Below, one piece after another: positions 1,715 through 31,160 of a DNA stretch of 32,000 nucleotides. Each line of letters begins with the position of its first letter. Positions within the stretch are counted from its first letter, which is position 1. The notes under the pieces were generated by a model. It searched no databases. It had not been told where the DNA came from and saw nothing but the letters and a program-made list of their open reading frames with translations. The translations under genes and the position numbers were made by a program. Source of the stretch: Candidatus Paracaedimonas acanthamoebae (GTDB lineage Bacteria > Pseudomonadota > Alphaproteobacteria > Caedimonadales > Caedimonadaceae); NCBI GenBank assembly GCA_000743035.1, contig CP008936.1, forward strand, positions 570,001 to 602,000, in the 5' to 3' direction.

Positions 1715-2075
1715 TGTAAGTAGATGGTAAGAGATGAAAATGACTTCCTTGTCGGTCTTTAAAAAAGTCCACAATCCTCTTCAAAAAATTCTCTAAATCC
1801 GTCCATTAAAAATAAAACTTGAGTCTAAAAACTCATTTAAGACCAATGAACGCTCTTTTTGAGCGAATGCCCTTTCTTTGCCGGGTGAAAAGTCAGAGGG
1901 TGGGCACGGAAAAGGAGAGGGGTTGGTGGAGGATAAAGAGGATTGAAAAGTTTTGGTTTGTTATTCCCAGCCTCTCTCTTGTTATCCCTGCGACCCAGGC
2001 TACGCCAAAGGCTTCTCCGAGGTGAGAGGCGGGGGGCCAGGTAGGTCCAAAAAGGATCGGATGGTGGTGGGAGTA

Positions 2076-2119
2076 ATCTTTCGGTCTCTTGAGATCCTTG
2101 GGACAAGCCTGAGAATGAC
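2076..2119 (+). repeat. palindromic repeat unit (ATCTTTCGGTC.CTTGAGAT-hairpin-GAC), degenerate stem
   Basis: ATCTTTCGGTCTCTTGAGATCCTTGGGACAAGCCTGAGAATGAC aligns with the units at 2202, 22866 and 23141. Confidence 0.7.
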
Positions 2120-2201
2120 AATCTAAGAAACCTGTCGCTGGTCATCCCGCGAAGGCGGGGGCCGAGGAAATGCTGAAGGGAAACGATTGGTGACATGATA
2201 G

Positions 2202-2245
2202 ATCTTTCGGTCGCTTGAGATCCTTGGGACAAGCCCAAGGATGAC
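2202..2245 (+). repeat. palindromic repeat unit, intact 9-bp stem ATCCTTGGG/CCCAAGGAT with loop ACAAG
   Basis: ATCTTTCGGTCGCTTGAGATCCTTGGGACAAGCCCAAGGATGAC lies 126 nt after the previous unit. A related GTCATCC-CCCGC-GAAG-GCGGG hairpin lies between them at 2141-2163. Confidence 0.75.
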
Positions 2246-2371
2246 GAGCCTAGAAGCACTCAAGACTTATTGGCGAGGATTATTGGAAATGAAAACAAAT
2301 AAAGAAAGGATCAAGAATTGTTGGGAAATAAAAGATTAAAACTAATGAGCTTGAGGCCTACCACCCACAAG

Positions 2372-2433
2372 GTCATCCTTGGGCTTGTCCCAAGGATCTC
2401 AGGCCACCTGAAAGCGTAAATAGGTGCCATGAG
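2372..2433 (-). repeat. palindromic repeat unit, inverted orientation, long form
   Basis: GTCATCCTTGGGCTTGTCCCAAGGATCTCAGGCCACCTGAAAGCGTAAATAGGTGCCATGAG is the near-twin of 23018-23079, with compensatory stem changes. Confidence 0.75.
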
Positions 2434-2761
2434 AGAGAAAAAGAAAATAAATAAAGAAAGGAAGAAATAACAAAAATTCTCACAAGGTTTAAGCCTTATT
2501 GAGAACAACTTAAGAAGCAAGGGAGGAGGATTTAAATGAAGAGGAACTAACCCTTGATCCTTAAGAAAAAAAAGGAAGTCTTGTGTTCGGAAAGAAGAAG
2601 AGGAACTCATGATTTCATCAAGGTGAACAAAACAAAAGAAAGAGAAAAAAAATGATGTAGGGAACTAAGAAGAGCAACACGAGTTATGTGGTTTATGGTC
2701 CAGTAACTCAATAAAACAAGATAAAGAACAAATAATTTAAATAAATTAAACAGGAGGTTAC

Positions 2762-3970
2762 ATGAAAAATTATTTAAAAAGATTAGGGAACGTATGGCCA
2801 AAAATAACGGGTCGAAAGAACAATGAACAAAAGGCAAGCAGCGTTGGTAAGATGATTGCCTTAAATCAAGTGGGCCGCCCTCAATGGACGCCCCGACAGT
2901 ATGAAGCGCTCACAGCCGAGGGATATCAAAAGAATATCATCGTCTATCGGGCGGTGAGTTTGATTGCCCGCGGGGCGGCCAGTGTGCCTTGGCGACTTTA
3001 TAAACATCATGAAGAGCTCTTGAGCCATCCCCTCTTGACGCTCTTGCATCACCCAAGCCCGCGACAGGGAGGGTCAGCCTTTATTGAAGCCGTACTGTCG
3101 TATCTGCTCTTAGCCGGTAACAGTTATATTGAAATTGTGTCAGATATGAAAGGTAAGCCGGCAGAGCTCTATCCTTTAAGACCTGATCGCGTGCAGATTA
3201 TTCCTGGTGCATCAGGTGTGCCACAAGCTTTTGAATATACTGTTAACGGGGTAAGGCGGCAATTGAATGTCGACCCCACAACTGGATGGTCGCATGTGCT
3301 GCACTTAAAGTTGTTTCATCCCCTCAATGATTGGTATGGGATGAGTCCCATTGAAGCAGCAGCATGTTCCATTGATCAACACAATACTGTGGCAAGCCAT
3401 AATCTTGCCTTGCTGCAAAATGGAGGACGCCCGTCCGGTGCCCTCATGGTAGGGCGGAATGATCGGTCATTAAACCTCACGGATGAGCAGCGGCAAGAAT
3501 TGCGCGAGGATGTTCGCGCGCTTTATCAAGGCAATGATAATGCCGGGCGCATTTTGGTCTTAGAGGGCGACTTTGAATGGCAAGAGATGGGACTTTCGCC
3601 AAAAGATCTTGACTTTATTGAAGGCAAAAGTATGACGGCACGTGAGATTGCTCAGGCCTATGGGGTGCCGCCAATGCTGGTGGGGGTGAGAGGTGATGCC
3701 ACTTTTTCCAATTATCGCGAGGCGCGCTTTCATCTGTGGGAAGACACCATCTTGCCTTTATTGGATTATTTGACCGATGAGCTCAATCGATGGTTAGCGC
3801 CTCAGTTTGAGCCAGGGTTACGCTTAGCTCATGATGTCGATCGCATTCCAGCTTTGGCCCAACGACGAGAAGATGCGTGGTCTAAAATTGCCAATGCTTC
3901 TTTCCTCACCATGAATGAGAAACGTCATGCCGTGGGGTATGTTCCCATTTCAAATGGCGACCAGCTTTAA
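2762..3970 (+). CDS. phage portal protein, HK97 family (RcGTA g3-like)
   Basis: 402-aa ORF preceded by AGGAGG 6 nt upstream. Its size and sequence character fit HK97-type portals, and an HK97-type prohead protease follows directly in GTA/HK97 gene order. Confidence 0.85.
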   Translation: MKNYLKRLGNVWPKITGRKNNEQKASSVGKMIALNQVGRPQWTPRQYEALTAEGYQKNIIVYRAVSLIARGAASVPWRLYKHHEELLSHPLLTLLHHPSPRQGGSAFIEAVLSYLLLAGNSYIEIVSDMKGKPAELYPLRPDRVQIIPGASGVPQAFEYTVNGVRRQLNVDPTTGWSHVLHLKLFHPLNDWYGMSPIEAAACSIDQHNTVASHNLALLQNGGRPSGALMVGRNDRSLNLTDEQRQELREDVRALYQGNDNAGRILVLEGDFEWQEMGLSPKDLDFIEGKSMTAREIAQAYGVPPMLVGVRGDATFSNYREARFHLWEDTILPLLDYLTDELNRWLAPQFEPGLRLAHDVDRIPALAQRREDAWSKIANASFLTMNEKRHAVGYVPISNGDQL

Positions 3971-3995
3971 GATCGAATAAGGAAAGGAAGAACCC

Positions 3996-4535
3996 ATGAG
4001 ACTCAATAAAATTTCTTATCCGATTGAAGTGAAATTTCTTGCGGAAGAGGGCGTTTTTGAAGGCTATGCCAGTGTGTTTGAGCATCTGGATGATCATGGA
4101 GATCGTGTGTTGAAAGGCGCCTTCATCGATTCTTTGCAGCAATGGTGGCAGTCAGGTCAGGCGCCAAAAATGCTCTGGCAGCATGACCCAAGCCAACCAA
4201 TTGGCGTGTGGGAATCTTTGGAAGAAGATGGCTATGGATTGCGGGTGAAAGGTCGATTGTTGCTCGATATTCAGCGAGGTCGGGAAGCCTATACCCTCAT
4301 GAAGGCAGGCGTTTTGGATAGCTTATCTATTGGCTATCGCGTGCTTGAGGCACGGCCAAGTCATAAATCTGGTGAGCGACTTCTCAGCAAGCTTGAGCTG
4401 CATGAAATCTCGCTCGTGACCTTTCCGGCAAATAATCGGGCAAAGATTACTCAAGTGAAGAATCTGTTTAGCCAAGACGTTGATGTGATTCAGCGAATCT
4501 ATGCTCTAGTGTCGTTGTTGAAGGAGTGGAATTAG
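3996..4535 (+). CDS. HK97-family prohead (maturation) protease (RcGTA g4-like)
   Basis: 179 aa. The N-terminal motif FEGYASVFEHLDDHGDRVLKGAF is typical of Peptidase_U35/S78 prohead proteases. The gene starts 25 nt after the portal. Confidence 0.85.
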   Translation: MRLNKISYPIEVKFLAEEGVFEGYASVFEHLDDHGDRVLKGAFIDSLQQWWQSGQAPKMLWQHDPSQPIGVWESLEEDGYGLRVKGRLLLDIQRGREAYTLMKAGVLDSLSIGYRVLEARPSHKSGERLLSKLELHEISLVTFPANNRAKITQVKNLFSQDVDVIQRIYALVSLLKEWN

Positions 4536-4634
4536 GGGAGAACAGTTATGCAGATATTCATGAAAATTTTTGGGAAATCCCCTAACATTAAACAGCATTT
4601 TAAGACAATAAACTTTCTGATCATCGGATCATTT

Positions 4635-4663
4635 TTGACATGCTTTATGAACTTTAGTATAAT
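4635..4663 (+). promoter_or_regulatory. consensus sigma70 promoter TTGACA-N17-TATAAT for the toxin-antitoxin cassette
   Basis: TTGACA is at 4635-4640, followed by a 17-nt spacer and TATAAT at 4658-4663. A perfect 10-bp palindrome CTTAGCTAAG (4673-4682) lies between the -10 box and the start, partly overlapping the AAGG RBS (4682-4685). The antitoxin ATG is at 4692. Confidence 0.6.
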
Positions 4664-4691
4664 TAAACTAAACTTAGCTAAGGTTAAAAAT

Positions 4692-4931
4692 ATGAAGCTC
4701 GTCAATATTCATGAAACCAAGACACATCTTTCACATCTGCTTGAAGAAGTTGCGCAAGGAGAAGACATCATTATTTGTAAAGCTGGACACCCGATAGCGC
4801 GGCTTGTCGCCTATCAAAACTTGCCTAAAGAGAGGATCCCCGGCTATTGGCAGGGGAAAGTGGAGATAGCTGAAGATTTTGATGTGCTGCCTTCCTCTGT
4901 TCTTGCTGCCTTTAAGGGAAAAAGTGAGTGA
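4692..4931 (+). CDS. type II antitoxin, Phd/YefM (prevent-host-death) family
   Basis: MKLVNIHETKTHLSHLLEEVAQGEDIIICKAGHPIARLV is a typical Phd/YefM N-terminus, about 79 aa. I trimmed the ORF-track start (4548) to the ATG behind the promoter and RBS. The stop overlaps the toxin start (GTGA). Confidence 0.8.
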   Translation: MKLVNIHETKTHLSHLLEEVAQGEDIIICKAGHPIARLVAYQNLPKERIPGYWQGKVEIAEDFDVLPSSVLAAFKGKSE

Positions 4932-5305
4932 AAGTTCTCTTAGATACTCATATCCTTTTATGGTGGTTGGGGGACCCTCATCAGCTTCTTGAGAAAGAGA
5001 TGAGTCTTATAAAAGAACCCCGCAATACAATTTATGTCAGTAGTGTCAGTGCATGGGAAATTTCCATCAAAAAAGCCCTTGGGAAACTTAAAGCTCCTGA
5101 TAATTTGGAAGAAGCCATTCGGGCAAGCGAATTTCAGGTTTTGCCGATGACAATGGCGCATGCATGCGGGATTGAAAAGCTTCCCAATCACCATGATGAT
5201 CCATTTGACCGGATGCTGATTTTTCAGACATTATGTGAGGGACTCACGTTGCTAACGCGCGATCAGAGAATAAAGGAATATGGTGTAAGAGTCTATAAAA
5301 GTTAG
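4928..5305 (+). CDS. vapC: type II toxin, PIN-domain VapC family ribonuclease
   Basis: 125 aa with a GTG start. The N-terminal LLDTHILLW carries the conserved acidic residue, the C-terminal HHDDPFDRMLIFQ motif is typical of PIN toxins, and the gene is translationally coupled to the antitoxin. Confidence 0.8.
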   Translation: MKVLLDTHILLWWLGDPHQLLEKEMSLIKEPRNTIYVSSVSAWEISIKKALGKLKAPDNLEEAIRASEFQVLPMTMAHACGIEKLPNHHDDPFDRMLIFQTLCEGLTLLTRDQRIKEYGVRVYKS

Positions 5306-5317
5306 CGTAAGTGAGAT

Positions 5318-5454
5318 TTTAAGCTACATGAACTCTCCTCGTGGCTTTTCCAGCGAATGCGCGAGCAAAGATCTTGCAGGTAAAGAACTTGTTTAACTAA
5401 GACTACGATATTATTCAACGAATGTATGCCTTGATGTCGTTGCTGAGAGATTGA
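5318..5454 (+). pseudogene. decayed second copy of the prohead-protease 3' end
   Basis: Hand alignment to 4392-4535 gives roughly 72% identity (37 mismatches and 1 gap over about 135 columns). The fragment has a 1-nt deletion, an in-frame TAA where the intact gene has CAA, and a stop two codons earlier. A Shine-Dalgarno-like box plus ATG follows it, as after the intact gene. Confidence 0.7.
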
Positions 5455-5686
5455 ACAGGTGGAGATGAAAGAGAGAAAGAATAAAGTTTTATTTTGTTGT
5501 GTTGAGGTCTTAAAAAATAAAGTGTTTTATTCTTATTCTGTATCATTAGTTAAGAGAGAGGATTTGTGTGAAACCCTGAGGTGTTATCGTTAAGTCGACG
5601 TCTTCTCTCTTTAAGGAGATTAAGATGTTTGCTTAATGGGTTCCTCTTATCAGAGCTGCATCCTCTCTCTTGAATGCTTTTCAATA

Positions 5687-5974
5687 TTATTTATTTTTAT
5701 CTTTAGGGAAATATTTGTTAATTGTGCTCTTGACTGAGTTTCCAAGCTCCTTATACATATCTTTGCGGAGTTCTGCTGCCTCATTCTCACTAATCCCGCT
5801 TGTTTTAAGGCAACGTTCATAGGACCCGATGTTTTCTTCATTACTAATATGTGTAAAACATTCCACATGTTTTGCACGTTGTTCAACAGTGGGCTTGTTA
5901 TCACTTGCCTGGAGGGACGCACTCCCAAAGCCAATTGTTGTGACACATAATAAATAACTTAGTTTAGTCTTCAT
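5687..5974 (-). CDS. small secreted hypothetical protein (paralog 1)
   Basis: Start set at the internal ATG, which has an AGAGGA RBS. The signal peptide is MKTKLSYLLCVTTIGFGSASLQA|SD. Its signal-peptide region is paralogous to 6424..6711. Confidence 0.6.
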   Translation of the reverse strand: MKTKLSYLLCVTTIGFGSASLQASDNKPTVEQRAKHVECFTHISNEENIGSYERCLKTSGISENEAAELRKDMYKELGNSVKSTINKYFPKDKNK

Positions 5975-6002
5975 TTTTTGATTCCTCTTGTTCGTTTGAT
6001 AT

Positions 6003-6020
6003 ATGGGGACCATTCCCCAT
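6003..6020 (-). promoter_or_regulatory. inverted repeat ATGGGGA-CCAT-TCCCCAT about 37 nt upstream of the paralog 1 start
   Basis: It has 7-bp arms. A related palindrome occupies the equivalent position upstream of paralog 2. Confidence 0.45.
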
Positions 6021-6352
6021 TGCTAAAATTGTACACATATTGATTTAACAAACGGTAAAAAGGCCTATTTTAAGTTGAAGTACACCTGCTTATATGGGCA
6101 ACTACAAGAATATAGTTCATCTTGTTGAAAGACATTTTGGGTTTTAAGTGGCTGTGGTTTGATTTATAAAAAATTATTTTCAGATTTTACATCAAATTAA
6201 GTAGAAGACCTTTCTTTCTTTCCGACAACGCCTCTATTAACACCCATCTTCAAGGAATCAACAAGTCAAGCAAAGTTGATGACTTGGGAATAAGGTGATC
6301 TAGGAAAGGATATCACGGCTTATATCTTCAGGGTGATTATTGAGAGATAAAA

Positions 6353-6400
6353 AAGAAAGAATAAACATTTTCTTTAAAATTAGAGAGTTTATTCTTTCTT
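6353..6400 (-). terminator. rho-independent terminator downstream of paralog 2
   Basis: A perfect 14-bp stem AAGAAAGAATAAAC/GTTTATTCTTTCTT with a 20-nt loop is followed by a T-run on the minus strand, 23 nt after the stop. A weaker relative lies at 5477-5534. Confidence 0.6.
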
Positions 6401-6423
6401 CATAAGGTTAAATATTTTGAGAT

Positions 6424-6711
6424 TTATTTTGACGTCTTATTTGTTATAAAGTCTTTAATTGCTGCTACTTGTGCTTTCCCAGATGCTTTGACGCAATCAA
6501 GGGGATATTTCGCGAGTTGAAGCTCGTATTGTTGCTCTTGAACCTCATCACGGCTCGTATGTGATAAATCTTTTTTCTGCTGTAAATCTTGTATTTCGAG
6601 CATTGTTTCACGGGAGCATTTTGGTGAAGAGTCAGAAGCATTAGCTACTCCACTAAACAAGCCTAAAGTTGTCACACCTATTAAATAAGTTAGTTGAATT
6701 TTCTTAAGCAT
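6424..6711 (-). CDS. small secreted hypothetical protein (paralog 2)
   Basis: Start set at the internal ATG, which has an AAAGGA RBS. The signal peptide is MLKKIQLTYLIGVTTLGLFSGVANA|SD. The mature part has diverged from paralog 1. Confidence 0.6.
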   Translation of the reverse strand: MLKKIQLTYLIGVTTLGLFSGVANASDSSPKCSRETMLEIQDLQQKKDLSHTSRDEVQEQQYELQLAKYPLDCVKASGKAQVAAIKDFITNKTSK

Positions 6712-6733
6712 TATAGTTTCCTTTTGTTGAGTA

Positions 6734-6758
6734 AAAGATGGGACCAATTCCCATCTTT
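6734..6758 (-). promoter_or_regulatory. inverted repeat AAAGATGGGA-CCAAT-TCCCATCTTT about 35 nt upstream of the paralog 2 start
   Basis: It has perfect 10-bp arms. The core ATGGGA..TCCCAT is shared with 6003-6020. Confidence 0.5.
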
Positions 6759-15311: not shown

Positions 15312-16577
15312 TTAATCGACTTCTTCCATTAAATTATCATTTCTTTCAGTTCTTAATAGCTGGCTTATTTCAGAAGAATTGAAGATTATTCCATTAATGG
15401 AAGTTAGGTTTGGTAAGCTTGCGATGACAGATGGGATATGTGAAAAAGTATTATGCCGGTAATGAATGTCAGTTAAGGATATAAGGTTAGATAAATCGTC
15501 TGGTAAGCTTTTAAGGTTACATAAACTCACATCCAAGACTCTTAAATTCCTAAGCTTAAATATAACCGGAGGGCATTCACCTTGAAGAAAAAAATTTCCA
15601 TTTAAACCTAAAGCCGTAAGATTATTTAAAGCAGATAAACCATCTGATAAAGTTAAAAGGCGGCAACTTGATAACCTAAGAGTTTTTAAACTGGTTATTC
15701 TAGTAACAACCTCGGGTAATAACTGATTGGCGAGCGTATTAAGGCTTAAATCTAAAAATTCAAGATTCGTAAGATATGATAAAGAGAAAGGTAAATAAGA
15801 ACAATCACTAAACCTAAGGTTAAGAGATTTTAGACGTGGTAAATTAAAAAAAATATCAGGTAATGAGGTAAGAAATTGGCTGTTGCACTTAAAAACTTCA
15901 AGATTAGTGAGGCTTGAAAGTCCTTCAGGTAAAGCCATAAGAGAATTTCCCTTAAGCGATAATTTTTTCAGTGAGGTTAACATTAAAATAAACTGAGGAA
16001 ACTTTGTAAGCTTAAAATTTTTGATATTAAGTTTTGTAAGATAAGATGAATAAGAAGAATATAAAGGAAAATCAAGTTCTTTTCCTATAGAAGTTGTCTC
16101 AAAGTAAAGCTCTTGAAGAGAACAAAAGTCTAAAACAGATGTTGGGAATTTGTTAACATTTTTTTCCTGGCCTGCTTTAGAAAATTCAAGGATTTGACAA
16201 CGGATTTTTACTTTACTGCGGCAGTTTAGAGCGAAGTACATAATTTTATCTTCAGTAAGATATTTCCAAATATTTGCCCAAATTTCGGGAGGTAGAATCG
16301 AATAATATTCTAAATCTTGTTCTTCTTGGAGTAAGGCACTTTTGTTAGTACCTGGAACTTTTTCCATTAAACTTTGTTCTGTTGTCCTATGGGGGACTTG
16401 GTGATGAAAAAAAGCTTTCGTTTTTATTAATAAATTATAAGCTTCTTCCAACTTTTTTCGTAAATTAAAGCAGTAATATCTTTTATTATCTTCTTGCTTT
16501 TCTCTAAAGCTATCCGAAGCCTCAAGTTGGTTAAAACCAAGACAGAGAAATAAGAAAAGAGTAAATTTTGACAGCAT
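15312..16577 (-). CDS. leucine-rich-repeat protein with N-terminal signal peptide and F-box-like motif
   Basis: The signal peptide is MLSKFTLFLFLCLGFNQLEA|SD. ILPPEIWANIWKYLTEDKIMYFALNCRS is F-box-like. At least 8 LRRs follow (LTSLKKLSLKGNSLMALPEGLSSLTNLEVF..., LxxLxLxxNxL). The gene is visibly AT-richer than its neighbours. Confidence 0.7.
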   Translation of the reverse strand: MLSKFTLFLFLCLGFNQLEASDSFREKQEDNKRYYCFNLRKKLEEAYNLLIKTKAFFHHQVPHRTTEQSLMEKVPGTNKSALLQEEQDLEYYSILPPEIWANIWKYLTEDKIMYFALNCRSKVKIRCQILEFSKAGQEKNVNKFPTSVLDFCSLQELYFETTSIGKELDFPLYSSYSSYLTKLNIKNFKLTKFPQFILMLTSLKKLSLKGNSLMALPEGLSSLTNLEVFKCNSQFLTSLPDIFFNLPRLKSLNLRFSDCSYLPFSLSYLTNLEFLDLSLNTLANQLLPEVVTRITSLKTLRLSSCRLLTLSDGLSALNNLTALGLNGNFFLQGECPPVIFKLRNLRVLDVSLCNLKSLPDDLSNLISLTDIHYRHNTFSHIPSVIASLPNLTSINGIIFNSSEISQLLRTERNDNLMEEVD

Positions 16578-16660: not shown

Positions 16661-17968
16661 TTAGGATTGCCACACTTTATAGGGACGTACCATATTTGCT
16701 TCTAGCATTAATGCTGTCAGGGCCCATACAAGGGCATCGACGCGGTCGGGCGAGGTCGTCATGCCGGGTAGGAATTTACACATCTGATCTTCAAGAAGTT
16801 TGAGGCCTTGGCGCGCATGGTGAACTTTCCCTTGTTCATAAAAAGCAGCGATAGGTTCTGCTCGTATATATTTTCCCCTGCTTGCATGAACCCCTTGATA
16901 GCTGATGTGAGGATCAAGCGACCTTAGAAGGCTTTCAACTAGATCGCCTCCTTGATTGACTTCAGCCACAATACGATCAGCTTTCCAGCGATGGTAAGCT
17001 TCACATGCGATCTTGCCCCAGGTCGTTGCAGGATAACGACCACTTAAATCTTCAAGAACATAAGCATGATGATCTTTTCCTAAATCAACAACAATGATAC
17101 CAGTTTCATCGCTTTCGTCATGATGGGTGACAGCTGGATCGATTCCAATGATGACTCGTTTAAGAGGAGAAGGCTCAGCTTCGCGATATTGATCAAGCAA
17201 AGCAGGCGGCCACAATGCACTTTCTCGTGCCTCAATAATTTCGCCTAAAAGCTCTTGGGCTCCTAAGCGTGTTCCTGCAAAACTCTTTTGCATTGTTTCA
17301 ATAAAAAGAGAGGAAAGATTCGCTTGGTTCTCAAAAGTTGTCCCACGTGTGAGCACGATTTCTTGCCCAGCTTGCGCGACAAGTTGTTGAAGCAAAGGCA
17401 ATGGGCGCGGTGTTGTGGTGATTACCATTCTAGGGTGAGAGCCAAGTCGGAGCGCAAAATGGATCTGTTGCCATACTTTTTCCATTTCACGAAATTTAGC
17501 AAACTCATCAATCCAGGCATGATCAAATTGAGGCCCTCGGAGTTGATCATAATTTTCAGCACTATACGCTGTCGCAATCGCGCCATTTTTCCATGTTAAA
17601 CGCCGCTTTGAAGGTTCATAGTGAGGACGGTCATCAGGGGGGTGAATTGCTAAAAGTCCACTTTCACCTTCAACCATAATGTCGCGGACATCTTCTTGAG
17701 TATCGCCGATAAGAGCAATGCGACGCGCTTGGTTGGTTTTAACCCAATGTCGGATGGTTTCAGCGCCCGTACGGGTTTTCCCAAAACCGCGGCCAGCGAG
17801 AACGAGCCAAATGCGCCAGTCACCTTCAGGAATTTTTTGACTCGGTCGAGCGTGGAAATGCCAATCATAATTTTCTAAGTTTTCAGGGGCGAGGGTGAGC
17901 GTTCCTTTCATTAAAAAAGGCTGACTTTGAGAGGGAACAGAGTGAGGATAAGAAGAGTATTTTTCCAT
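16661..17968 (-). CDS. phage/GTA terminase large subunit (RcGTA g2-like)
   Basis: 435 aa with the Walker-A-like WLVLAGRGFGKTRTGAE near the N-terminus and an RNaseH-like C-terminal nuclease half (IGIDPAVTHHDESDETGIIVV). Its size matches GTA-type TerL. Confidence 0.8.
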   Translation of the reverse strand: MEKYSSYPHSVPSQSQPFLMKGTLTLAPENLENYDWHFHARPSQKIPEGDWRIWLVLAGRGFGKTRTGAETIRHWVKTNQARRIALIGDTQEDVRDIMVEGESGLLAIHPPDDRPHYEPSKRRLTWKNGAIATAYSAENYDQLRGPQFDHAWIDEFAKFREMEKVWQQIHFALRLGSHPRMVITTTPRPLPLLQQLVAQAGQEIVLTRGTTFENQANLSSLFIETMQKSFAGTRLGAQELLGEIIEARESALWPPALLDQYREAEPSPLKRVIIGIDPAVTHHDESDETGIIVVDLGKDHHAYVLEDLSGRYPATTWGKIACEAYHRWKADRIVAEVNQGGDLVESLLRSLDPHISYQGVHASRGKYIRAEPIAAFYEQGKVHHARQGLKLLEDQMCKFLPGMTTSPDRVDALVWALTALMLEANMVRPYKVWQS

Positions 17969-19488: not shown

Positions 19489-20217
19489 ATGGACAATACA
19501 GCAATTGACGCTACAACCATTGGAAAATCAGTCGCCACCACAGATCTTTCTGCTTGGGGCCTCTTTATTAATGCAGATCTTGTTGTACAGCTTGTCATGC
19601 TTTCATTAATTGTAGCATCAATTTGGTGCTGGACAATTATTTTTTCAAAAGTGATGCGACTTAGAACTTTACAGAATTTGGCTGAAAAATTTGAAGAAGC
19701 CTTTTGGTCGGGTGGTTCACTTGACAGTCTCTATGATCGTGTCGGGACGCGCCCAACAGATCCTCTTGCGAGCATTTTTGCTGCGGCCATGAAAGAATGG
19801 CGCCGTTCTTTAAAAGGAAAACCCGCGACCCGAGAAGCTAAAGCCATGCTCCAACAGCGGGTTGAGCGCATTATGCATGTTACTGTTGATCGTGAAATGG
19901 ATCAGCTCGAGCGGCATCTTCCCTTCTTAGCCTCTGTAGGTTCAACGGCGCCTTTCGTTGGCTTATTTGGGACTGTTTGGGGAATTATGCATAGCTTTCA
20001 AGGTATCGCAAGCTCACAAAGTACGAATCTTGCAGTTGTGGCGCCTGGTATTGCAGAAGCTCTTTTTGCCACAGCTATTGGCCTTGTGGCTGCTATCCCC
20101 GCTGTATTAGCGTATAATAAAATTTCAACTGAGCTTGGCCGTTATGGTATGCGTCTGGATTCTTTTGCAAGCGAGTTTGCTGCCATTATCTCGCGTCAGC
20201 TAGAGGAGGTTGAATAA
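19489..20217 (+). CDS. tolQ: Tol-Pal system protein TolQ (MotA/TolQ/ExbB family)
   Basis: 242 aa with three TM segments and the motif LASVGSTAPFVGLFGTVWGIM. tolR follows. Confidence 0.9.
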   Translation: MDNTAIDATTIGKSVATTDLSAWGLFINADLVVQLVMLSLIVASIWCWTIIFSKVMRLRTLQNLAEKFEEAFWSGGSLDSLYDRVGTRPTDPLASIFAAAMKEWRRSLKGKPATREAKAMLQQRVERIMHVTVDREMDQLERHLPFLASVGSTAPFVGLFGTVWGIMHSFQGIASSQSTNLAVVAPGIAEALFATAIGLVAAIPAVLAYNKISTELGRYGMRLDSFASEFAAIISRQLEEVE

Positions 20218-20706
20218 ATGGCAGGTGATCTTCAAGCCTCTGCTTTCTTAGGAAAGCGTAAAACTCGGAACCGGCAGACACTCAGCGGCCTTAAAAGCGA
20301 AATTAATGTGACGCCTATGGTTGATGTCATGTTGGTGCTTTTAGTTATTTTTATGGTGACAGCACCCTTGATGACGGTTGGAGTCCCTCTTGATCTCCCA
20401 AAGACAAAAGCAGCTGCAATCAATGAAAAAACAGAGCCTTTGACTATTTCAGTGACGGCTGATAACAAGATTTATATCCAAGAGACTGAAGTGAAGCTAG
20501 AGACCTTAGTACCTCAACTCCAAGCAATTACTTCGGCAAAACCGGATACGCGCATTTTTGTTCGAGGAGATCAAAAAATTGCTTATGGCTTTATCATGCA
20601 AGTCATGGGCACGCTAAGTGCTGCTGGATTTGATAAGATCGCGCTTATGGCAGAGCTTCCTCAAGGAAATCCAGAGGTAAAAGCAAAAGGCAAGAACCCT
20701 AAATAA
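20218..20706 (+). CDS. tolR: Tol-Pal system protein TolR (ExbD/TolR family)
   Basis: [23 protein letters not shown] is the ExbD/TolR TM motif. The start abuts the tolQ stop. Confidence 0.9.
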
Positions 20707-20722
20707 AGTTGAGAGCCGATCA

Positions 20723-21571
20723 ATGATGCAGAAACCTTTACTCTATTCTTTATTGCTGCATCTTTTTTTATTCATATTGTTTATCTTTGGGCTTCCAAAT
20801 TGGCGTAAAAGCAACCCGGATTTGCTTTTACCTATCCCTATTGATGTGGTTGAAATTGGATCTAAGACGCAGGCGCCTAAGCCAACACTTCACCCCAAAA
20901 AAGAAGAAACTAAGAAAGACGAGCCTAAAAAAGAACCTCCTAAAAAGGAAGAGCCAAAGCATCAACCAAAACCTGAAAATAAGCCAACGCCGGAGCCAGA
21001 AAAGCCTAAGCCAGAGCCAAAAGCTGAACCCATTGCGCCGGCACCAAAGGCAAAGCCTAAGCCACCCACACCCCCTAAAAAGGCTCAAGAGAAGAAGGCA
21101 CCTGAAAAGAAGCCAGAAAAGAAAAAGGTTAATGCGTTTGATTCAGTGCTTAAGAATCTTGAAGAAATTGAGAAAACAGTGCCTGATGCCATTAAGGATG
21201 CTAAAAGCGACGATAATGCTCCTGACCAACAAGTGGGAGAAATTGGAGATACGTTAACGGTTAGTGAGATAGATGCTCTTAGAAAGCACTTTGAAAATTG
21301 TTGGATTGTACCAGCAGGTACGAAAGGAGCGCATGAAATGTCAGTTATCCCCATTAAAATTTATTTCAATATTGATGGATCGGTGGTGGATGCTAAGCCT
21401 GTAGAAACGGTCAAAATGAGCGACCCAGCTTATCGTGCTATTGCTGAAAGTGCTGTGCGATCTGCTAAAGGTCCTCAGTGTAGTCCTGTCCCTGCAAAAT
21501 TATTGTCTCCAGAGAAGTATGAGCAATGGAAAGTTTTGAGCTTCAACTTTCATCCAAAAGATTTGATGTAA
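20723..21571 (+). CDS. tolA: Tol-Pal system protein TolA-like (N-terminal anchor, K/P/E-rich linker, C-terminal TolA/TonB-type domain)
   Basis: The position after tolR, one N-terminal TM, a long KPEPK-type low-complexity linker and a globular C-terminus all fit TolA. Confidence 0.8.
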   Translation: MMQKPLLYSLLLHLFLFILFIFGLPNWRKSNPDLLLPIPIDVVEIGSKTQAPKPTLHPKKEETKKDEPKKEPPKKEEPKHQPKPENKPTPEPEKPKPEPKAEPIAPAPKAKPKPPTPPKKAQEKKAPEKKPEKKKVNAFDSVLKNLEEIEKTVPDAIKDAKSDDNAPDQQVGEIGDTLTVSEIDALRKHFENCWIVPAGTKGAHEMSVIPIKIYFNIDGSVVDAKPVETVKMSDPAYRAIAESAVRSAKGPQCSPVPAKLLSPEKYEQWKVLSFNFHPKDLM

Positions 21572-21782
21572 ACAAAGATTTCAATCCTCTTTTCTTAACG
21601 TCCCTTAGTTAAGTACCTCTTATTTTTTAGGGAATTAACAAAAGTTGTTCTATAAACTACACTATACTTAAGTTTAAATAACAAAATGGACAGAAAAATG
21701 CATTGCAAAACGTGAGGATTACTCTTTTAAGAAAATTTCACGATAGTTCATAAGTAAAAAATGGAGGCTTTACAGTAAAAAA

Positions 21783-22151
21783 ATGATTATTAAAATTGAA
21801 GGCAAAATTTCTGCGTCTGAATTTCATAAAGTTGTTGATATATTATCATCTTATTTTCAAAAGCATGGCGTTGAAGAATTTATAGCAGTCGATATTGATT
21901 TGAAACCATTCCATAAAGAAATACAGTTGCCAATTTCTCTTTCTGGTGAAACAGGGAAAGAGATAAAGTCGTTAGAAATAAGAAGGTCAAAATCAGGCGA
22001 GCTAAAGCTGACAGAAACAACGGTAAATAGTTCTTGGATGACAGTCCCCTTTGGAAGCGTTTCTCCAGGGGAGCTTATGATGCGCCTATGGCCTTTGTAT
22101 CTTGTTGGGTTTGGCTTGTTAATTTTATATTTAATGTGGTTTAAAGCTTAA
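21783..22151 (+). CDS. orphan hypothetical protein with C-terminal TM helix, inserted between tolA and tolB
   Basis: 122-aa ORF with the tail segment LWPLYLVGFGLLILYLMWF. It is AT-rich, the only GGAGG is about 16 nt upstream (poor spacing), and no family was recognised. Confidence 0.4.
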   Translation: MIIKIEGKISASEFHKVVDILSSYFQKHGVEEFIAVDIDLKPFHKEIQLPISLSGETGKEIKSLEIRRSKSGELKLTETTVNSSWMTVPFGSVSPGELMMRLWPLYLVGFGLLILYLMWFKA

Positions 22152-22330
22152 TAGTAAATTGGCTAACTTTTTTACTAAGTCTCATATTTTTAGCCTTTAT
22201 CAAACAAGGAGCTTTTTTGTAATGAAAAGATTTTTTAGGAAGTTATTAGTATAAGGGGGGCTTCCCTCACTTTCTTTCATAATATTTTTTTGAATAACTC
22301 AAAAATATTTGAAATTTGCGCAAAATTCTC

Positions 22331-22359
22331 TTGATATTTGTAACCTATTGTGGTAGTCT
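22331..22359 (+). promoter_or_regulatory. putative sigma70-type promoter TTGATA-N17-TAGTCT at head of module B
   Basis: Its architecture is identical to 1686-1714. Confidence 0.4.
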
Positions 22360-22852
22360 GATAATAGATGGTCAGAAATGATTTTCTTCCCTTATGAAAC
22401 CTTAAAACAGTCTCATAATTCTTTCAAAAATCCTTTCCGATCGTCTTAATAAAAACAATAATAAGGCAGGGAGTTTAAAACCTAAATTATTAGAGAAAAA
22501 AAGCCTTTGAGCGCTCTTTTTGAGCGAATGCCCTCTCTTTGCCTTTTTTCAAAAGCCAATTTCCGTGGTGAAAAAGAGAAGAAAAAGGAGTGATAAGAAA
22601 GGATTAAGAAGGATTTTCCTTCCAACTGTGGATCCCTGCCTGCGCGAGGATGACAAAGGGAGGGACGTGATGATGACAAACTGGGGAAGGTCTCTAATCA
22701 TGCGTGAGAAGTATGGTGGAAAAGGTCACTATGAAAGGTCCTCACTATGTTTGCGAGGTACTTGGTGAAAGATGAGCCAGTGTGTGAGAGGCAACTTTCC
22801 TTCTGTTATCCTCGCAAAAGCGGGGCTCCAGGAGTGCAGGAAAACAATGAGA

Positions 22853-22909
22853 GGCGATAGGAGAGATCTTTAAGTCGCTTGAGATTCTCTGAACAGGCCC
22901 GAGAATGAC
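22853..22909 (+). repeat. palindromic repeat unit (57-nt form)
   Basis: GGCGATAGGAGAGATCTTTAAGTCGCTTGAGATTCTCTGAACAGGCCCGAGAATGAC is 54/57 identical to 23128-23184. Confidence 0.75.
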
Positions 22910-23017
22910 ACAGGGGGGGATGAAAGGGCTCGTTGGCAAGGATACGGGGGCGGGTGCGAAAGCACTGTCAGGAAAGGGTGTTGGAAAGGAAGTCATAGAA
23001 TAATCATCCTCTCCATC

Positions 23018-23079
23018 GTCATCCCCGGCCTTGTGCCGGGGATCTCAGGCAACCTGAAGGCGTGAATAGATGCCATGAG
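23018..23079 (-). repeat. palindromic repeat unit, inverted orientation, long form
   Basis: GTCATCCCCGGCCTTGTGCCGGGGATCTCAGGCAACCTGAAGGCGTGAATAGATGCCATGAG has a 9-bp stem ATCCCCGGC/GCCGGGGAT with loop CTTGT. Confidence 0.75.
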
Positions 23080-23127
23080 GTCTTCATCATGCGTAATAGG
23101 GATGGTATGAAAGAGAAAAAGCCGCAT

Positions 23128-23184
23128 GGCGATAGGAGAGATCTTTAAGTCGCTTGAGATTCTCGGAACAAGCCCGAGAAGGAC
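23128..23184 (+). repeat. palindromic repeat unit (57-nt form)
   Basis: GGCGATAGGAGAGATCTTTAAGTCGCTTGAGATTCTCGGAACAAGCCCGAGAAGGAC has the stem TTCTCGG/CCGAGAA. Confidence 0.75.
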
Positions 23185-23205
23185 AACATTTAAGGTCTAA
23201 AGTCC

Positions 23206-23237
23206 GTCATCCTTGGGCCAGGGCCTAAGATAATGAG
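23206..23237 (-). repeat. degenerate inverted palindromic unit
   Basis: GTCATCCTTGGGCCAGGGCCTAAGATAATGAG shares the GTCATCC head and the ...ATGAG tail with the long inverted form. Confidence 0.45.
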
Positions 23238-23587
23238 AATGGAAAGATTTGGAGCTTGCGTATGAGAGCTAAGTGAAAATAAAAAAACAAAGAAAGGGAA
23301 AAAATGTTGAGAAATAAAAGGTTAACACCGATGCGATGCAAAAGTATCATCTATATAGGGAGATCTTATAGGGACAAGGATCCAGAGAATGAGGAGATGC
23401 TGAAAGACATTAAGAAGGCTTTTTTCTTAAGACGGGGAAGGAGGTTGCTAGTTTAATGATGAAAGTACTTCTTTCCATTTTTATCCAAAGGTTTTATAGT
23501 GCGCTTTTGAACAAGATAAGTCTTTAAAATTTATATAGAAACGCTTTTGCATAATTAAGGTGTGGTTGCTGAAAAAAGGTCATAATC

Positions 23588-24910
23588 ATGAGGAAAATGA
23601 GGAATTTAGTTACTTTAATTTTAGGTGGTTTTCTTGTCGTAAAGTCCCTTCACGCAGAGCTTGTGATTGATGTGACCTCGGGCCGAGTCGAGCCTATGCC
23701 CATTGCCGTGACAGATTTTTATGGAGCAACACCTCAACTTGCTGCACTTGGGGCTCAAATTACGAAGATTATTAGTGACGACCTTGAAAGTTGTGGGCTC
23801 TTTAGGCCTTTGGATAAAATGTCGTTTATCCAAAGTCCTGCCCAACTTCGAGACCATATCAGGCATGCAGATTGGCGCCTTATTAATACGCAAACACTTG
23901 TGCGTGGTGAAATCAGACAACTCTCCGATGGACGTTTAAGGGTTGAATTCCGTCTCTTTGATGTGATCTCAGAAAAACAAATGGAAGGTCTAGCTTTTCC
24001 TTTTGATCCCAGACTCCAGCGTCGCATTGCTCATAAGATTGCGGATGCCATTTACAAGAGAGTGACGGGAGATGAAGGATATTTTGATACACGCATCGTT
24101 TATGTATCGCAAACAGGGCCTTTAACAAATGCACGCAGACGATTGGCAATTATGGATCAAGATGGGGCAAACGCGAGGCTTCTTAGCACAGGGGATACAA
24201 GCGTTTTGACACCGCGTTTTTCACCTGATGGACAGGAAATTGCGTATTTAGAGTTTGCGCGTCAACGAAATATGGCACCTCATGTTTATCGTATGCAGCT
24301 TTCAACACTTCAGCGTCAGCTTGTGGGAAATTTTAAAGGAATGACATTTGCACCTCATTATTCGCCTGATGGAAAAAATGTGGTGATGAGTTTTTCTGCG
24401 GGAGGACGAACCTCTCTTTATAAAATGAATATTCTTACGCGAACAGTTCAACGTTTAACAGATGGCCCTCTGATCGACACCTCACCATGTTATTCGCCTG
24501 ATGGTACGAAAATTGTTTTTAACTCCGATCGTGGTGGAAAACCTCAACTTTATATCATGTCTGCGAATGGCGGAGATGCTCAACGAATTAGTTTTGGTCA
24601 TGGGCGCTATATGACACCTGTATGGTCACCGCGAGGAGATTTAATTGCTTTTACGAAACAGCATGCCGGTAATTTTTACATCGGAGTGATACGTCCTGAT
24701 GGAACAGGAGAGCGCTTAATTGCACAGGGTTATGTGGTTGAAGATCCGTGCTGGTCCCCTAATGGGCGTGTGATCATGTTTACACGGATGGAACGTTCTG
24801 GAAAATCAAAGATTTATACAGTGGATATTACAGGGTATAATGAAAGGATATTGCCTACACCTGCAGGAATAGATGCTCGAGGGCCTTCTTGGTCTCCCCC
24901 CTTGAATTAA
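23588..24910 (+). CDS. tolB: Tol-Pal system beta-propeller protein TolB
   Basis: 440 aa with a signal peptide and repeated SPDG/PD40 motifs (FSPDGQEIAY, YSPDGKNVVM, YSPDGTKIVF, WSPRGDLIAF, WSPNGRVIMF). Confidence 0.95.
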   Translation: MRKMRNLVTLILGGFLVVKSLHAELVIDVTSGRVEPMPIAVTDFYGATPQLAALGAQITKIISDDLESCGLFRPLDKMSFIQSPAQLRDHIRHADWRLINTQTLVRGEIRQLSDGRLRVEFRLFDVISEKQMEGLAFPFDPRLQRRIAHKIADAIYKRVTGDEGYFDTRIVYVSQTGPLTNARRRLAIMDQDGANARLLSTGDTSVLTPRFSPDGQEIAYLEFARQRNMAPHVYRMQLSTLQRQLVGNFKGMTFAPHYSPDGKNVVMSFSAGGRTSLYKMNILTRTVQRLTDGPLIDTSPCYSPDGTKIVFNSDRGGKPQLYIMSANGGDAQRISFGHGRYMTPVWSPRGDLIAFTKQHAGNFYIGVIRPDGTGERLIAQGYVVEDPCWSPNGRVIMFTRMERSGKSKIYTVDITGYNERILPTPAGIDARGPSWSPPLN

Positions 24911-25023
24911 CATAATTTTTAGGTTATACTTACTTTACGTTGAGGTCAAATTGTAATATTGTGTGGAAAATTTTAAAATTTTCTGCAAAAATCTAAACAC
25001 CCTTAAAAAGGACAAAGAGGACA

Positions 25024-25491
25024 ATGAAAAAAGTATTAGCCGCTCTCGGCACAACACTTCTTCTCGCAGCTTGTGATACTTGCTGTGAAGACAAAGCTGC
25101 TACTGGTGGTTTTGATATCAATAGTGAAGCAACACCAGGTTCAGCTGCTGAATTCCATCAAGTTATTGGCGATACAGTACACTTTGGTTTTGATAAGCAT
25201 AACTTAACGACTGAAGGACAAACTGTACTTCATAAGCAAGCTGATTGGCTTAAGAAGTGGCCACAAACAAACGTTGTTGTAGAAGGTCATTGTGACATTC
25301 GCGGAACAACTGAATACAACATGGCTCTCGGTGAACGTCGTGCTCATGAAGTCAAGAAGTTCTTGGTTGGTCAAGGCATTGATACAAAGCGCGTAGAGAC
25401 TGTTAGCTACGGTAAAGAACACCCAGTTGCACAAGGTACAACTGAAGCAGATCACGCTAAGAACCGTCGCGGTGTGACAGTTCTTCGCTAG
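25024..25491 (+). CDS. pal: peptidoglycan-associated lipoprotein Pal (OmpA-like)
   Basis: Lipobox LLLAAC and an OmpA C-terminal domain (VVVEGHCDIRGTTEYNMALGERRA...KNRRGV). It follows tolB. Confidence 0.9.
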   Translation: MKKVLAALGTTLLLAACDTCCEDKAATGGFDINSEATPGSAAEFHQVIGDTVHFGFDKHNLTTEGQTVLHKQADWLKKWPQTNVVVEGHCDIRGTTEYNMALGERRAHEVKKFLVGQGIDTKRVETVSYGKEHPVAQGTTEADHAKNRRGVTVLR

Positions 25492-29629: not shown

Positions 29630-31160
29630 GTGAAGCCGCCGTTCTATATTACAACCCCGATTTATTATGTGAATGATGTACCTCATATTGGTCATGCGTA
29701 TACGACAATTGCATCAGATATGATGGCCCGCTTTGCAAGAATGGAAGGCCGAGAGGTCTTATTCTTAACAGGAACGGATGAACATGGCCAAAAAATCCAA
29801 AAAGCAGCGCAAGCAGGAGGGACAGATCCTAAAGCTTTTGTGGATCAGGTTTCTGAGAGGTTTAGACAATTAACACCGTTATTTCATTTATCCAATGACC
29901 AATTCATCCGAACGACAGAAGAACGCCATATACAGTCAGCCCAGGCTTTATGGGCCAAAATGAAAGAGCGAGGATTCATTTATAAAGGAGGATATGCAGG
30001 ATGGTATGCTGTCCGGGATGAAGCTTTTTATGCGGAGTCTGAACTTATTAATGGCAAAGCGCCAACAGGAGCAGATGTCGAGTGGGTAGAAGAGCCCAGC
30101 TATTTCTTTAAACTTTCTTCTTTTCAAGAGCCTTTGCTTGCATTCTATCGGGATAATCCTCATTTTATTGGGCCAGAAACGCGACGGAATGAAGTTATTC
30201 GATTTGTGGAAGGAGGTCTCAATGATCTTTCCATTTCACGTTCTTCCTTTAAGTGGGGAGTCCCCGTGCCGGATGATCCAGACCATGTCATGTATGTGTG
30301 GGTTGATGCGCTTGCAAACTATATTACAGCTCTTGGGTATCCAGATGAAAATGCGGCTGATTTTAAAAAATTTTGGCCAGAAGCCCTCCATATTATTGGA
30401 AAAGATATTCTTCGTTTTCATGCCATTTATTGGCCTGCCTTTTTGATGGCCGCTGGTTTAACACCTCCAAAGCGCCTTTATGCACATGGATGGTGGACCA
30501 ATGAAGGACAAAAAAATCTCAAAATCTGTGGGCAATACAATCGATCCTGTTGAGCTTGTGGAAACTTATGGGGTGGACCAAGTACGTTATTTCCTTTTGC
30601 GTGAGGTGCCTTTTGGCCAGGATGGAGATTTCTCCCGCACCGCTCTTGAGCAGCGTATTAATTCCGATCTTGCAAATGATTTTGGAAATTTAGCGCAACG
30701 CGTTCTTTCATTTGTTTATAAGAATGCTGACGCAAAAGTACCAACACCATCTTCTTTTACCGAGCAAGATGAGATGCTTTTAAAGGCTGCACAAGAGCTG
30801 TTGCCACGCTTGTGTGAGAATTTTGAAAAACAAGCACTTCACCGCATGATTGAAGCGATTTGGGAGCTTGTGGGAGCGGCTAACCGATATGTAGATGCTG
30901 AGCAGCCTTGGGCTTTAAAGAAATCAGACACTGTGCGGATGGCGACAGTTCTTTATGTTCTCTTAGAGGTTTTGCGGCATTTGGCATTTTATGTGGCTCC
31001 CATCATACCGCAGACATCTGAAAGATTGCTGGCATTACTCGGTATTTCAGAGGCAAGCATTTCGTTTAAAGATTTAATTGAAAAGAAGCTTCAAAGTGGT
31101 GTGCAATTGCCGCAACCAGAAGGATTATTCCCCCGGATTGAAAAGGAGCGCAAAGAATGA
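29630..31160 (+). pseudogene. metG: methionine--tRNA ligase, interrupted as sequenced by a 1-nt frameshift in an A7 run
   Basis: The N-terminal ORF 29630..30553 (GTG start, HIGH motif VPHIGHAYT) and the C-terminal ORF 30480..31160 ([12 protein letters not shown]..., anticodon-binding domain) are both MetRS. Removing one A from 30510-30516 fuses them into about 509 aa. Confidence 0.85.

Follow-up and report, generated by a model that had tools for sequence, protein, structure and literature searches.

A Phd-VapC toxin-antitoxin cassette between a working and a broken copy of a prohead protease 3' end in Candidatus Paracaedimonas acanthamoebae

The DNA analysed here is a 32,000-nt stretch of the Candidatus Paracaedimonas acanthamoebae genome (contig CP008936.1, positions 570,001 to 602,000), hereafter the window. 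It carries a portal gene and a prohead protease gene of the HK97 or gene transfer agent (GTA) type, followed by a Phd-VapC toxin-antitoxin (TA) cassette and then by a second, broken copy of the last part of the protease gene. The two protease segments are referred to as copy 1 and copy 2. Coordinates are those of the window unless a contig is named, and L-numbers (L001-L018, L098, L100) denote fetched contigs that were compared with the window, L098 and L100 being outgroups. The features concerned are the following:

2762-3970, + strand: HK97/GTA-type portal gene, intact, the putative left homology arm (PF04860, E 2.7e-88; TIGR01537; ratio of nonsynonymous to synonymous substitution rates, dN/dS, 0.02-0.04 against relatives)
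3996-4535, + strand: HK97-family prohead serine protease gene, 179 aa, intact (PF04586, E 5.7e-33; TIGR01543)
4392-4535, + strand: copy 1, the working last 47 protease codons plus stop, of the '..KEWN*' type of cassette-bearing genomes (asterisk, stop codon)
4536-4691, + strand: cassette leader, with TTGACA at 4635-4640, a 17-nt spacer, TATAAT at 4658-4663, and an AAGG Shine-Dalgarno (SD) motif before the Phd ATG
4692-4931, + strand: Phd/YefM-family antitoxin gene, 79 aa (PF02604, 34.9 bits, cut-off 29.8; TIGR01552, 32.1 against 20.8)
4928-5305, + strand: PIN-domain VapC toxin gene, 125 aa, with a GTG start (PF01850, 61.6 bits against 23.6)
5306-5317, + strand: spacer from the VapC stop to copy 2, the right-hand cassette junction, alignable in the window, L011, L014 and the L009 remnant
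5318-5454, + strand: copy 2, the displaced and inactivated original protease 3' end, with a frameshift, a TAA and a premature TGA
5465-5546, no strand assigned: AT-rich palindrome directly 3' of copy 2 (inverted repeat I3; single-stranded DNA fold z = -2.6)

The repeat of the protease end was recovered by several methods. By blastn, 4393-4521 matched 5319-5446 at 73.6% identity over 129 nt with one gap (E=2e-16), in agreement with the roughly 72% that a sequence-only reading of the window had estimated by hand. A repeat search of the window gave 72% ungapped identity over 116 nt (4413-4528 against 5338-5453), and the repeat was also recovered by MAFFT. Furthermore, a profile compiled from every copy seen in the relatives matched 4391-4540 (E 1.6e-46) and 5318-5466 (E 2.2e-37), and no further copy was found with it in the 32-kb window. 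The identity is far above background for AT-rich sequence, and a full second protease gene was seen in no relative. A third remnant had been suspected near 6200-6350 (repeat D2); the profile search gave no match there, and D2 proved to be a shared AT-rich palindrome only.

The three defects described earlier in copy 2 (a 1-nt deletion, an internal TAA and a shortened end) were all seen on translation. The deletion follows position 5337, the TAA at 5398-5400 replaces CAA, and a Trp codon two codons before the end has become TGA. With the frame corrected, copy 2 reads FKLHELS-LVAFPANARAKILQVKNLFN*DYDIIQRMYALMSLLRD*, and judged by this translation it is a pseudogene fragment, a dead version of the last 47 protease codons. 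Between copy 1 and copy 2 of the window, the proportion of synonymous differences (pS) is 0.64 and that of nonsynonymous differences (pN) 0.19, compared with a pS of 0.51-0.70 and a pN of 0.04-0.11 between functional copies of different genomes. Former coding constraint thus seems to be still visible in copy 2, together with about 0.1 per site of later decay. The dN/dS ratio was rejected as a test of whether the copies had diverged before insertion because, once saturation is considered, both possibilities fit the numbers.

The ~780 bp between the copies had been described as a self-contained TA cassette, which is borne out: they hold the Phd and VapC genes as an intact operon with its own sigma-70 promoter (4635-4663, matching the consensus at 12 of 12 positions). 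The antitoxin gene comes first, and the GTG start of VapC overlaps the Phd stop by 4 nt. Counted from the ATG of Phd to the stop of VapC, all TA copies measure 614 nt; leader and promoter are alignable in L009, L011, L014 and L017, and the VapC residues D6, E44, D94 and D112 are invariant in the window, L009, L011 and L014. VapC gave no NCBIfam equivalog match. Phd-VapC is predicted to be a functional type II toxin-antitoxin pair. Purifying selection on the TA genes is seen in the dN/dS values between lineages, 0.05-0.13 for Phd and 0.06-0.13 for VapC. In addition, TA identity follows that of the genomic backbone (87.0% vs 87.6% between L009 and L011; 76-82% vs 80-81% between the window and the others). 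Because identities track the backbone and dN/dS is this low, the cassette appears to be a long-term, selected resident that has diverged in step with its host genome.

In gene order, 4-nt overlap, domains, acidic PIN residues and strong promoter, the module is the same as ordinary chromosomal Phd/YefM-VapC type II modules; it is only the placement inside a gene tail that is unusual. No plasmid or phage source of the cassette was found, the only matches being VapC stretches of 75-87 nt on cyanobacterial plasmids. A GTDB scan with VapC returned a single close relative (85%), which 'Caedibacter sp. 37-49' has at this very site; all others reached at most 58% and came from unrelated phyla. A pattern scan of metagenomes recovered the known contigs again and nothing further.

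The Phd frame is open for 48 codons upstream of its likely start (window 4548-4691; also from 8556 in L013 and from 10552 in L014), and gene callers alternate between a 79-aa and a 127-aa product. Since the promoter lies inside this extension, its translation from the transcript of the cassette itself is improbable; transcripts reading through from the protease could allow it. The ATG at 4548, which opens only this promoter-containing extension, and another at 5465, which opens a 43-codon open reading frame (ORF) inside the AT-rich palindrome, had been pointed out, with the SD-like boxes before them, as the place where a capsid gene would start. The motifs do exist behind both copies, but they are not capsid starts, and tblastn detected no capsid homology in the window.

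Relatives of the window allow the arrangement to be followed across lineages. Protease homologues 85-90% identical to that of the window occur in Candidatus Paracaedimonas acanthamoebae and 'Caedibacter sp. 37-49 / 38-128', amoeba-associated Holosporales. The cassette stands directly behind the protease in five lineages (the window, L009/L010, L011-13 (= L018), L014 and L017) and is absent from four (L001-4, L005-8, L015 and L016). The order protease, copy 1, Phd, VapC, copy 2 is also found in L011-13/L018 and L014, and in L017 the contig ends after protease, copy 1 and Phd, before copy 2 would be reached. L009/L010 contain all of these parts too, but a reverse-strand gene and a decayed second TA separate VapC from copy 2; the order in L009 is intact TA, inserted 489-aa gene, decayed second TA and then copy 2. 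The shared VapC-copy 2 junction fits a single founding event. In a tree of portal and protease body, the window groups with L005 (96% bootstrap) and L009 with (L011, L015) (100%), so that each clade holds both cassette states. TA remnants were detected by tblastn in none of the TA-free L001, L004, L005, L015 and L016; L015 has ~25 nt of cassette-type leader only, followed by a different gene.

An occupied and an empty allele are provided by L011 and L016, which derive from related bioreactor metagenomes. The two contigs differ by 0 mismatches in 1104 nt left of the site and by 1 in 3236 nt right of it, and L011 equals L016 plus 932 bases, that is, the cassette plus one repeat. From this comparison, the cassette with one protease-end copy is a discrete unit of 925-932 bp whose gain or loss leaves everything else unaltered. 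By three-way alignment, the protease end of L016 begins with the left-hand portion of L011 copy 1, continues through a 56-nt core in which the two L011 copies do not differ, and finishes with the right-hand portion of copy 2 and the flank of that copy. The L016 junction is therefore the exact crossover product of two direct repeats or, formally, its reverse. As the TA is old in that lineage, L016 is read as a recent deletion, a polarity inferred from parsimony and TA age. The sequence-only reading had named an empty site in relatives, with the protease directly followed by the capsid gene, as a check; L016 supplies an exact empty allele, and no capsid gene follows the protease in close relatives.

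Furthermore, near-identical patches between copies 1 and 2 are present in several genomes, each genome having its own at a different position: a 56-nt stretch in L011, one of 71 nt (94%) in L009, and in L014 one of 136 nt (81%). No such patch exists between the window copies. The patches are read as traces of gene conversion between the repeats, and their differing positions suggest homologous exchange rather than a fixed core site.

The polarity of the two copies can be read from their ends. In the cassette-free L001 and L005, the protease ends in ..DWSL* and is followed by a GC-rich terminator hairpin. Copy 2 of L009 ends in ..D*SL* (TGG>TGA) and has the same hairpin behind it; together with its flank, this copy matches the functional end and terminator of L005 at 83.8% over 68 nt, a score reached by 0 of 500 shuffles. 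Copy 1 of L009, in turn, ends in ..DWN* and runs into the cassette leader. Homology also links the flank of window copy 2 to those of the L005 remnants (76.4% over 250 nt, 71.4% over 378 nt). Because L009 copy 2 retains the native terminator and the window copy 2 flank is homologous to those remnant flanks, the downstream broken copy is the original protease 3' end, and the working copy appears to belong with the cassette.

An ancestry test, in which sites where L005 differs from L009 = L011 were scored for the state shared by the window, gave a corresponding picture. Of the sites scored in 4157-4385, 15 have the L005 state in the window and 2 the L009/L011 state; in 4391-4534, the corresponding counts are 5 and 17. 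The best breakpoint, 4385/4391, coincides with the left edge of the repeat (a value reached by 4 of 300 permutations), and pairwise identities switch in the same way. The (window, L005) grouping of the protease body is lost in the 145-nt partition of the repeat, where bootstrap is weak. Ancestry thus seems to change at the repeat boundary whichever genome's copy 1 is foreign.

Taken as a whole, the locus is probably the product of an old insertion that was anchored by homology, came with a protease 3' end of its own and has since been kept by selection, patched by conversion and left losable by recombination between the repeats. A DNA piece composed of a protease 3' end, Phd and VapC, with its ~0.8-kb operon, would have paired by homology with the resident protease gene. 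Its far end would have joined just upstream of the resident 3' end by homology-facilitated illegitimate recombination; alternatively, a circular form could have entered by a single Campbell-type crossover within the shared segment. In either case, the incoming copy (4392-4535) would have completed the reading frame, so that the protease stayed intact, and the old end would have been pushed downstream to 5318-5454. The direct repeats would then have kept interacting, gene conversion patching copy 2 in some lineages and crossover deleting the cassette cleanly. Such would be the first route of insertion, and addiction to VapC/Phd may slow loss of the unit. Of the origins offered by the sequence-only reading, the arrival of a TA-carrying segment together with adjoining protease sequence is the one that the discrete 925-932 bp unit, the comparison of L011 with L016 and the native terminator behind L009 copy 2 support.

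Other kinds of recombination site were considered and rejected. Copies 1 and 2 fold no better than shuffled sequences on either strand (z = 0.0 to +1.1), which leaves no attC-like or otherwise structured site. An RNA or tRNA/tmRNA attachment site was likewise discarded: there is no Rfam match in 3900-5700 and no tRNA in the window, and sub-threshold Rfam matches occur only at an AT-rich hairpin at 6348-6405. The large reverse-strand genes near the unit were examined as hidden recombinases and gave only weak F-box-like or PD40 matches. The neighbours of the unit are F-box-like, LRR or TPR effector-type genes.

The picture could also be that of a site-specific integrative element reduced to a stub, whether a prophage, an integrative and conjugative element (ICE) or an integrative and mobilizable element (IME), that is, a remnant resembling a cis-mobilizable element ('CIME-like'). 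Copy 1 would then be attL and copy 2 attR, attP would have supplied the 3' end, and the TA would be the last cargo. The direct repeats bracketing a discrete unit, the exact empty site and a supplied 3' end that keeps the gene intact all suit such an element, as does the left edge of every remnant, which lies within a few nt of one position whatever its left neighbour (the TA in the window, an F-box-like gene in L005). Against it, Pfam searches of the neighbouring genes at ~10 independent loci found neither an integrase nor a recombinase gene within the unit or next to it. Moreover, the identical patches of copies 1 and 2 sit at different places in each genome and are missing from the window, no related element was found on plasmids or phages, and close VapC relatives occur at this site in the clade only. 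An integrative element is judged to be unlikely, although it is a fair rival. In-place duplication is a rather improbable explanation, in which the TA landed 3' of the protease, the protease tail was later copied to the far side of the cassette and copy 2 decayed, with no foreign protease involved. It draws on the divergence of the window copies, which is compatible with a duplicate about as old as the split of the window from L005, and on the tandem duplication of a repeat copy with its flank and small gene that L005 shows at this locus. A tandem copy of protease end plus TA, however, would end in the TA and not in the protease end, and the affinity of the window protease changes at the repeat edge. 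In L009, copy 2 has an end of the native '..DWSL*' type and the native terminator, whereas copy 1 has '..DWN*' and the leader; the copies differ in kind and not by decay alone, and a shared junction with distinct end types argues against duplication in place. Finally, the sequence-only reading had also offered a crossover, within one genome, of two GTA or prophage head modules that had diverged from each other, which would have deleted everything in between, the capsid gene included. The bare existence of two diverged protease segments is all that speaks for it. No trace of a second copy extends beyond the ~140-nt fragment at which homology ends, a second portal or protease occurs in no relative, the TA-free genomes and the L016 empty site also lack a capsid, and no capsid remnant follows copy 2. 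Such a crossover is thus extremely improbable.

Several points weigh against the homology-anchored insertion as well. A site-specific integrase acting in trans or deleted later would leave the same attL/attR-like picture. The divergence of the window copies is equally compatible with copies that differed before they were joined and with a duplicate made in place at roughly the time when the window and L005 separated. The ancestry switch could mean that copy 1 is foreign in L005, which has other cargo behind it, and not in the window. The L011/L016 difference could, parsimony apart, be a deletion or an insertion. In addition, two remnant copies lie behind other cargo in the TA-free L005, and the hotspot is therefore not TA-specific.

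Comparable arrangements are known. The sequential displacement of effector-immunity pairs in type VI secretion systems (T6SS) and the C-terminal displacement of Rhs tips have been described, with homology-facilitated illegitimate recombination as the proposed mechanism (Kirchberger et al., 2017, PMC5361080, citing Jackson et al., 2009). As in the displacement of Rhs, contact-dependent inhibition (CDI) and T6SS modules, the gene body is kept here, the incoming module consists of its own 3' part with a linked toxin/antidote pair, and the earlier 3' part ends up farther downstream as an orphan with residual homology. Also shared are the later reshuffling or deletion of modules by homologous recombination between repeats and the lack of a dedicated recombinase. 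The locus thus combines an intact gene with an alternative 3' end, cargo and an orphaned homologous older 3' fragment, the constituents of C-terminal displacement. What has been displaced here, unlike in those systems, is the normal C-terminus of a capsid-maturation protease and not a toxin tip, and both versions encode about the same peptide. Furthermore, the linked pair is a cytoplasmic type II TA instead of a secreted effector with its immunity protein, and only one displacement layer is present in the window.

Phage 21 and e14 insert in the 3' end of E. coli icd, supply a replacement end and leave an icd pseudogene fragment. The locus resembles them in the insertion into a coding 3' end, the diverged but protein-conserving replacement, and the old end left as a short pseudogene at the far junction; it differs in that phage 21 and e14 encode an integrase and use a defined core, whereas the present unit lacks an integrase, has a cargo of two genes and shows variable exchange points. 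Chromosomal integron cassette arrays often carry TA cassettes. They are similar in having the newest cassette beside a fixed site with older ones pushed distally, repeats of ~130 nt and TA modules with their own promoter. In contrast to integrons, no IntI is found at the locus, the repeat is coding and folds on neither strand like attC (z >= 0), and the 'array' of L005 arose partly by tandem duplication. The locus is a fairly ordinary recombination scar of a known type with standard TA cargo, and current views of TA modules, GTAs and recombination are not overturned by it.

The missing capsid gene is a separate matter. In the outgroups L098 and L100, the order is portal, protease, capsid, connector and head completion, and the capsid gene starts 52-95 nt past the protease stop. 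The contiguous portal-protease-major capsid-connector order of Rhodobacter capsulatus GTA (RcGTA)-like head clusters is found neither in the window nor in close relatives: no capsid gene follows the protease in close relatives with or without the cassette (the TA-free ones being L001-L008, L015 and L016), and tblastn with an outgroup capsid detected no capsid homology in the window and ten related loci. A search for the capsid elsewhere in the clade with the L100 capsid gave none attributable to the clade among the 120 matches listed. Because TA-free relatives also lack the capsid and the L011/L016 indel comprises the cassette alone, the break between protease and capsid lies at the base of the clade and is independent of the TA indel. 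The earlier suggestion that the event which placed the TA had removed the capsid is therefore contradicted. Similarly, the TA had been proposed to explain why portal and protease persist, and it is not needed for this, as dN/dS of the two genes is 0.02-0.09, alike in TA+ and TA- pairs.

Holosporaceae symbionts generally retain head and portal genes, with the terminase often encoded apart (George et al., 2022, PMC9254644). In the window, the large terminase (T4-type) lies 12 kb from portal and protease on the other strand. This gene (16661-17968, - strand) is solitary and adjoins a very AT-rich (28% GC) LRR effector-like gene (15312-16577, - strand). It stands near tolQRA-tolB-pal (tol-pal genes at 19489-25491), which recalls the reported Holosporaceae GTA clusters near ybgF with the terminase apart. 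On the other side of the head genes, the ~1.35 kb 5' of the portal (1407-2761) contain no convincing ORF and are unusual in strand composition, with an AT skew of 0.29 and a GC skew of 0.22 over 2001-3000. Short segments there are common to the equivalent region of L014/L015 and internally repeated (2052-2119 resembles 2189-2247), and no tandem repeat was detected in 1407-2761. The region may be a decayed gene, relatives having an LRR gene or small ORFs there.

Further variation is concentrated behind the protease. In L005, an F-box-like gene and genes for small secreted proteins precede two further remnants of the protease end, the third copy having arisen by tandem duplication of a unit of remnant, palindrome and small gene. 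As the cargo of L005, L009 and L015 differs, the interval from the protease to the DUF2062 gene is the variable part of the locus and the protease tail its recurrent left boundary. An identical protease (P0007; database name Ca. Paracaedimonas acanthamoebae) is shared by L001 (8620-12005) and L004 (1877-3529), and behind it the contigs differ, with two tandem F-box-like genes (544 and 545 aa) in one and a single gene (550 aa) in the other, a second within-species copy-number polymorphism at the same hotspot. It might be imagined that the last ~140 nt of the protease form a standing capture site, at which pieces taken up by homology (the TA, an F-box effector, small secreted-protein genes) are stacked newest-first and released as repeat-bounded units, an integrase-free, integron-like system possibly fed by GTA transfer between endosymbiont lineages; this idea is judged decidedly improbable.

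The AT-rich palindrome at 5465-5546 lies between copy 2 and a convergent gene (5687-6013, - strand) and is conserved after copies 2 and 3 of L005; it is probably an old bidirectional terminator. The same element trails the protease-end remnants in L005. A second, related AT-rich palindrome with 14-nt perfect arms is present at 6353-6400; both palindromes (GAAAGAATAAA...TTTATTCTTTC) lie between convergent genes. Sub-threshold Rfam matches of the AT-rich palindrome to the plastid psbA 3' untranslated region hairpin are surely due to chance. In several genomes, the variable region behind the protease holds one to two copies of a gene family encoding ~100-aa proteins with signal-peptide-like N-termini, one conserved Cys, no Pfam match and 18-42% identity (window 5687-6013 and 6424-6747; L005 10650-10955 and 11486-11806; L009 11222-11575; all on the - strand). 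Elsewhere in the window, the methionyl-tRNA synthetase gene (29630-31160) is split into overlapping ORFs (29630-30553 and 30480-31160) by a frameshift near 30505-30516, where an A7 run (..GGACAAAAAAATCTCAAAATCT..) immediately ahead of the KISKS motif contains one A too many. Either a homopolymer was misread in sequencing, or the gene has a poly(A)-tract frameshift such as endosymbionts tolerate via transcriptional slippage.

In annotations, the 137-nt fragment should be marked as what remains of a protease pseudogene, and the absence of the capsid should not be attributed to the TA. The site behind the GTA-type protease is a variable hotspot of this locus in amoeba-associated Holosporales. It offers a clean natural case of a selfish TA module lodged in a conserved gene without breaking the protease, and the pair of occupied and empty alleles indicates that such a module can be lost by recombination between repeats of 56-140 nt.

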